Notes under the pieces: generated by a model | What the model saw: the letters and a program-made list of their open reading frames with translations, nothing else | What the model was told of the DNA's origin: nothing | Databases searched by the model: none | DNA from: Escherichia phage PECP20 | Direction: 5' to 3' (one strand) | Sequence record: OQ873415.1 | Length of the DNA stretch: 64,000 nucleotides | Translations under genes and position numbers: made by a program | Shown: positions 37,425 through 37,880 of the stretch, piece by piece | Position numbering within the stretch: the first letter of the stretch is position 1 | Layout of the letters: each line of letters begins with the position of its first letter

Positions 37425-37880
37425 TTATTTTAGATCTTCGGCCCAATCTAGTTTTAAGGGTTCTTTGTATTCACGGTCGAGAATAACCGGAATAGCTACA
37501 TCACCACTGAATGATAGTTGGCCAACGTTATATGATAACGTTATATGTGGAGTGTAGTCGTCGAAATCATGAGTAGCACCTAAAGCTCGTGCGTACTGAT
37601 GACGACATCTAAGATATTCGGAATCAAGAACTAAAACCAGTACAGCGCCGTCATCGGTTTTCCATACCTCAAGGTGTCCTGATTCGGCAACAGAATAACT
37701 ACCACTAGATGTAGTATATGGTATGTTTACACGTGAATAACAAATTGTCGAATGAAGCTTTTCACGTGGTACTGGATTAGGAATTCTTAATTTGCGCTGG
37801 AGGTCTTCCAGCGCATCAAGTGTTAATTCTGAAAACTTAGCTGCGACGTAGAGGCCTTGTGAAAAGTCCTCAAATTTCAT
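37425..37880 (-). CDS. 57B: 2H phosphoesterase (two HxT motifs), gene 57B equivalent; candidate Acb1-type cyclic-oligonucleotide phosphodiesterase
   Basis: Motifs HSTICY and HITLSY; 151 aa; located directly upstream of 57A as in T4. Confidence 0.65.

Follow-up and report, generated by a model that had tools for sequence, protein, structure and literature searches.

Gene 57B of the RB69-like Escherichia phage PECP20 encodes a probable Acb1-type anti-CBASS phosphoesterase

Characterised Acb1 enzymes and their relatives

The product of T4 gene 57B was identified by activity-guided fractionation as a 3'3'-cGAMP-degrading enzyme and was named Acb1 (Hobbs et al., Nature 2022, PMC9117128). Nine further Acb1 homologues were found to cleave 3'3'-cGAMP and cAAA, and a T4 phage lacking acb1 grows normally in the absence of CBASS and is impaired more than 300-fold in its presence (PMC9117128). 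Acb1 activity appears approximately 15 min into T4 infection (PMC9117128). In the T4 enzyme, the aromatic residues Y12, W74, F107 and W147 provide base stacking, E141 contacts adenine N6, and the tetrad H44, T46, H113 and T115 performs metal-independent acid–base catalysis, which runs via a cyclic phosphate intermediate and ends in a linear 3'-phosphate product; the catalytically inactive mutant is H44A/H113A (PMC9117128). The structure of Acb1 from Erwinia phage FBB1 is available in the apo form (PDB 7T26) and with 3'3'-cGAMP (PDB 7T27), and its lid closes over the bound signal (PMC9117128). Poxvirus cGAMP phosphodiesterases, LigT and AKAP7-type enzymes have the same superfamily fold and HxT/HxT chemistry as the protein described here, and the poxvirus enzymes can reportedly take the place of acb1 in a phage (PMC12064943). 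However, the lid of the poxvirus enzymes is N-terminal, and their substrates differ from those of Acb1.

In this study, a stretch of 64,000 nucleotides from Escherichia phage PECP20 (OQ873415.1), hereafter the window, was analysed around an open reading frame of 151 codons at the position of gene 57B. Gene identity, orthology, residue conservation, synteny and purifying selection were observed directly in the window and its homologues; the chemistry, substrate range and in-vivo role of the protein were taken from the T4 and FBB1 orthologues and are worded conditionally below. Our main reading, to which we assign a probability of roughly 0.93, is that the protein is the Acb1 of an RB69-like phage, namely, a 2H phosphoesterase that would block CBASS.

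Position and gene order of acb1

The surrounding DNA is 97–99% identical to that of the RB69-like phages OLB35, CCU7, CAU_ECP01 and RB69, and the source phage is therefore placed, by sequence identity, among the RB69-like members of Mosigvirus (Straboviridae, Tevenvirinae). The genes of the locus are as follows:

38115..38849, minus strand: gene 1 (dNMP kinase), Pfam DNMK, E 1.4e-96; heads the run 1, 57A, 57B
37880..38110, minus strand: gene 57A, Pfam GP57, E 9.8e-25; directly 5' of acb1
37425..37880, minus strand: acb1 (gene 57B), starting with ATG; 151 codons followed by a TAA stop
37060..37347, minus strand: ipI (internal protein I), Pfam IPI_T4, E 2.6e-49; next gene 3' of acb1

The 57A product is a tail-fibre chaperone, and IpI, an inhibitor of GmrSD-type restriction, is 86% identical to T4 IpI and 98% identical to RB69 IpI. 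The adjacency of acb1 and ipI has been described as an anti-defence cluster (PMC9117128).

The window order of gene 3, gene 1 (DNMK), 57A (GP57), acb1 and ipI is the same as in T4, including the strand arrangement. The order 3, 1, 57A, 57B is common to T4, RB69, Krischvirus G5211, Slopekvirus KP27 and Vibrio phage D490, and is thus conserved across five genera. The first-pass annotation had placed 57B directly upstream of 57A, as in T4. The adjacency is indeed that of T4, but the word 'upstream' holds in plus-strand coordinates only; 57A and 57B are minus-strand genes, and 57B is therefore downstream (3') of 57A in transcription. The synteny argument itself stands because the 57A/57B arrangement is the same in T4.

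The 57A stop codon and the 57B start codon overlap by one base (TAATG; junction GAAGAATAATGAAA), and this overlap suggests that the two genes may be translationally coupled. The overlap is 4 nt in the T4 annotation. The window protein is one residue shorter than that of T4, the annotated T4 protein beginning at an additional Met further upstream.

Identity, pocket residues and proposed function of the protein

The sole significant Pfam match of the 151-aa protein is Acb1 (PF23474; 198.1 bits against a cutoff of 27 bits, E 7.4e-59), in which residues 8–149 cover the complete profile (1–144 of 144), and FBB1 Acb1 (PDB 7T26/7T27) is matched at E 3.5e-59 over residues 9–148. Alignment with T4 gp57B (NP_049750.1) is gap-free and full length, with 86% identity and 93% positives. 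The proteins of RB69 (gp57B, AAP76056.1) and vB_EcoM_WFL6982 are 100% identical to the window protein, and of the 1,470 phage records that matched it in a tblastn search, 1,462 did so at near full length. Codon comparison with T4 gave 75% nucleotide identity, dN of 0.126 and dS of approximately 1.8; the resulting dN/dS of approximately 0.07 indicates that strong purifying selection acts on acb1 as a real protein-coding gene. Orthology with T4 57B is supported because both sequence and gene position match. The first-pass proposal of a 57B equivalent with an Acb1-type 2H phosphoesterase product is thus borne out by the 86% identity to T4, the full-length Pfam Acb1 match, the 7T26 match and the gene order; the alignment with T4 57B/Acb1 that it had proposed as a check gave an orthologous pair with conserved catalytic histidines.

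A compact 2H fold with a C-terminal lid is predicted from the 64% identity to FBB1 Acb1 (7T26/7T27) over approximately 140 residues. This fold was assigned by homology because the single-sequence AlphaFold2 model of the window protein was too poor to use (mean pLDDT 40.9, pTM 0.31). The FBB1 enzyme shares the catalytic tetrad and E140 with the window protein, and our assumptions on the 2H fold and the lid mechanism are taken from it. The tryptophan W73, shared by the window and T4 proteins, corresponds to F in FBB1, and the FBB1 construct is N-terminally truncated. The functional elements of the protein map to the window as follows:

37746..37754, minus strand: first HxT motif, H43-S44-T45, codons CAT TCG ACA; H44/T46 in T4
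37539..37547, minus strand: second HxT motif, H112-I113-T114, codons CAT ATA ACG; H113/T115 in T4
37428..37451, minus strand: C-terminal lid, residues 144–151 (145–152 in T4), with W146; counterpart of the FBB1 lid

Two HxT motifs had been claimed in the first pass, and the translation contains exactly two, at residues 43–45 and 112–114. Approximately 0.26 such motifs are expected from the composition of the protein, so that two are mildly unusual by number (Poisson P approximately 0.03); it is their alignment to the catalytic HxT/HxT tetrad of the solved Acb1 that makes them meaningful. All nine functional residues of T4 Acb1 are kept (Y11, W73, F106, W146, E140, H43, T45, H112 and T114 in window numbering), and the 21 substitutions relative to T4 all lie elsewhere. 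The lid reads LDWAEDLK versus LDWADDLK in T4, a single conservative D-to-E change. An alignment of six homologues, comprising the window protein, T4, FBB1, an RB49-type protein, KP27 and Vibrio phage D490 (the others 86% to 34% identical to the window protein), shows that H43, T45, H112, T114, Y11 and E140 are invariant, also in the homologues of 34–45% identity.

The KP27 homologue (Slopekvirus, a Klebsiella phage; KP27 locus L004, 1959..2582) has 207 aa, with a C-terminal extension of approximately 55 residues past the lid. In this homologue, K stands in place of the lid tryptophan W146, and a terminator is predicted between its acb1 and 57A genes. Judged from these sequence features, the KP27 variant could behave differently from T4 Acb1.

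Public records raise a different reading, in which the protein would be an RNA-end enzyme of the LigT / 2',3'-cyclic phosphodiesterase type that serves RNA repair, for example, of tRNA cut by host anticodon nucleases. The protein belongs to the 2H superfamily, it has a weak match to Pfam 2_5_RNA_ligase2 (PF13563; E 0.026, 15 bits, residues 76–131 only), and acb1 is located near the phage tRNA cluster. Among the matches listed, most GenBank/RefSeq records, as well as phrog_755, are labelled 'RNA ligase' or 'hypothetical protein'; one record is named 'putative RNA 2',3'-cyclic phosphodiesterase', and only one, vB_Eco_ZCEC15, uses 'anti-CBASS protein Acb1'. However, the PF13563 score is below the cutoff of 27 bits, whereas the Acb1 profile scores 198 bits, and the T4 orthologue was found through degradation of 3'3'-cGAMP and its deletion defect is CBASS-dependent (PMC9117128). 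The base-stacking and adenine-reading residues for binding of cyclic oligonucleotides are also all kept, and the 'RNA ligase' labels are fold-based names rather than the outcome of tests. The window protein had no significant sequence match to poxvirus or other 2H phosphoesterases (LigT, AKAP7-type), with the LigT-type Pfam at E 0.026, and its relation to PF13563 lies at the superfamily level only. RNA ligation as the primary function was rejected on the sub-threshold LigT match and the genetics of the T4 orthologue; we regard the RNA-end reading as very improbable, and any RNA-end activity would probably be a side activity rather than the main role. The 'RNA ligase' naming is an annotation lag, not a biological difference.

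The title of the first-pass annotation additionally named an anti-Pycsar activity, which would make the protein a dual nuclease that also hydrolyses cCMP and cUMP. This addition goes back to that title only, and the two activities were described in one paper. Apyc1 (SBSphiJ gene 147) follows the same strategy as Acb1, in that a cyclic-nucleotide immune signal is degraded, but it acts on cyclic mononucleotides and is a Zn-dependent dimer of the unrelated MBL fold, homologous to Acb1 neither in structure nor in mechanism (PMC9117128). The window protein has no similarity to Apyc1 and carries no MBL signature, Acb1 being its sole significant Pfam match; no MBL-family Pfam match was found at E up to 0.1, and the Apyc1-type HxHxDH zinc motif is absent from the protein, which has only five histidines. 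The anti-Pycsar part of the title was dropped on the published specificity data (PMC9117128): such activity belongs to Apyc1, and Acb1 is anti-CBASS only. Dual activity is thus regarded as highly improbable.

An inactive or decaying copy, retained solely through translational coupling to 57A, can be given almost no credence. Nothing specific points to it beyond the dispensability of the T4 gene for growth without CBASS, and it is opposed by the intact, full-length frame, the retention of all catalytic and binding residues, the low dN/dS (approximately 0.07) and the identical protein in independently isolated phages.

The T4 Acb1 mechanism is assigned with high confidence to the window protein, by analogy, because all nine residues are kept and the tetrad, Y11 and E140 are invariant among homologues. 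The CBASS cyclase (CD-NTase) of the infected host would produce cyclic di- or trinucleotide alarm signals, and the signal would be held in a U-shaped pocket in which Y11, W73, F106 and W146 stack. The C-terminal lid would then shut over the captured signal, and adenine N6 would be read by E140. The tetrad H43/T45/H112/T114 would provide metal-independent acid–base catalysis, the adenosine 2'-OH attacking the 3'-5' bond to give a 2',3'-cyclic phosphate intermediate and, subsequently, a linear 3'-phosphate product such as GpAp. Abortive infection would be prevented because the linear product cannot activate CBASS effectors. The protein is almost certainly, by analogy with its orthologues, a metal-independent 2H phosphodiesterase, and its expected substrates to be linearised are 3'3'-cGAMP, cUA, cAAA and cAAG; cGG, cA4 and the Pycsar cNMPs would be left uncleaved, and 3'2'-cGAMP would be a weak substrate at best.

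Small shifts in substrate preference may follow from the 21 substitutions that separate the protein from T4 Acb1. It is a slim possibility that the RB69-type allele has a shifted range and would, for instance, efficiently cleave 3'2'-cGAMP or cGG-type signals that are poorly handled by T4 Acb1; if true, Mosigvirus phages would escape CBASS types that restrict T4. The sequence gives no hint of such a shift, all named contact residues being identical to those of T4.

The window acb1 is a previously sequenced, family-assigned orthologue with identical proteins in public phage records. Its textbook orthology to an anti-defence enzyme that has been characterised leaves it of little importance for discovery. 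A literature search found no experiment on RB69 or Mosigvirus Acb1: the main text of Hobbs 2022 (PMC9117128) makes no mention of 'RB69', and, among the papers listed, the only one with both 'Acb1' and 'RB69' concerned wheat-phyllosphere phages. An NCBIfam scan returned no family for the window protein. The practical value of the assignment is in annotation, where 'anti-CBASS protein Acb1' is the evidence-based name. The assignment also predicts that the phage can plate on hosts in which the CBASS signals are 3'-5' cyclic di- or trinucleotides that contain adenine.

Expression sites and neighbouring genes

A candidate late-promoter site for 57A and acb1 is located inside gene 1:

38465..38472, minus strand: T4-late-promoter-like octamer TATAAATA, exact match inside gene 1; candidate for 57A and acb1

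Gene 1 ends 350 nt below this octamer, and in T4 the same octamer precedes the gene 1 end by 356 nt. The octamer is not over-represented in the window (11 found versus 8.7 expected), and the conserved position is the one argument for function, so that a late promoter in gene 1 serving 57A and acb1 is proposed as a lead. Such a promoter would be consistent with the appearance of Acb1 activity at approximately 15 min in T4 infection. We infer that acb1 is expressed together with 57A, through the coupling and a possible late promoter. Scans around acb1, compared with shuffled sequences, showed no enrichment of sigma-70 promoters (9 sites versus 10.4 expected) or of terminators (4 sites versus 1.7 expected); terminator-like sites were found neither between 57A and acb1 nor directly after acb1.

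A promoter-like site is present upstream of ipI at 37382..37410 on the minus strand, with TTTACA, 17 nt and TG-n-TACTAT, and it is conserved in RB69 and T4 (GTTTACATA...TACTAT). In form, the site is similar to a T4 promoter of the early type, and it would provide a separate transcription start for ipI downstream of acb1. The acb1–ipI spacer also contains a 10-bp hairpin (GAUGAUGGUG/UACUAUCAUC; -13.2 kcal/mol, z = -1.9) that overlaps the ipI promoter-like site. The hairpin was considered as a terminator and rejected because of its marginal z and the absence of a U-tract.

Between 57B and ipI, RB69 has one more gene, RB69ORF156c (327 bp; RB69 locus L002, within the region 3361..3798), which the window and T4 are without. 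This gene starts with the ipI leader, ATGAAAACCTAT..., MKTY.EF; because the leader is the same as that of ipI, RB69ORF156c looks like a second internal-protein gene that may have been gained by duplication or as an inserted cassette. Otherwise, the spacer upstream of RB69ORF156c is near-identical to the window spacer at 37348..37424.

Four small open reading frames lie 3' of ipI at 35633..37009 on the minus strand and match RB69ORF151c, tRNA.2, tRNA.3 and tRNA.4. They share the anti-defence neighbourhood with acb1 and ipI; they correspond to phrog_1411 and phrog_1692 ('unknown function') and to no Pfam family. The phage tRNA genes are located at 35397..35553 on the minus strand and are two only, tRNA-Arg(UCU) and tRNA-Met(CAU), as in RB69; in T4, the corresponding locus contains eight tRNAs along with segB and a pair of small RNAs.
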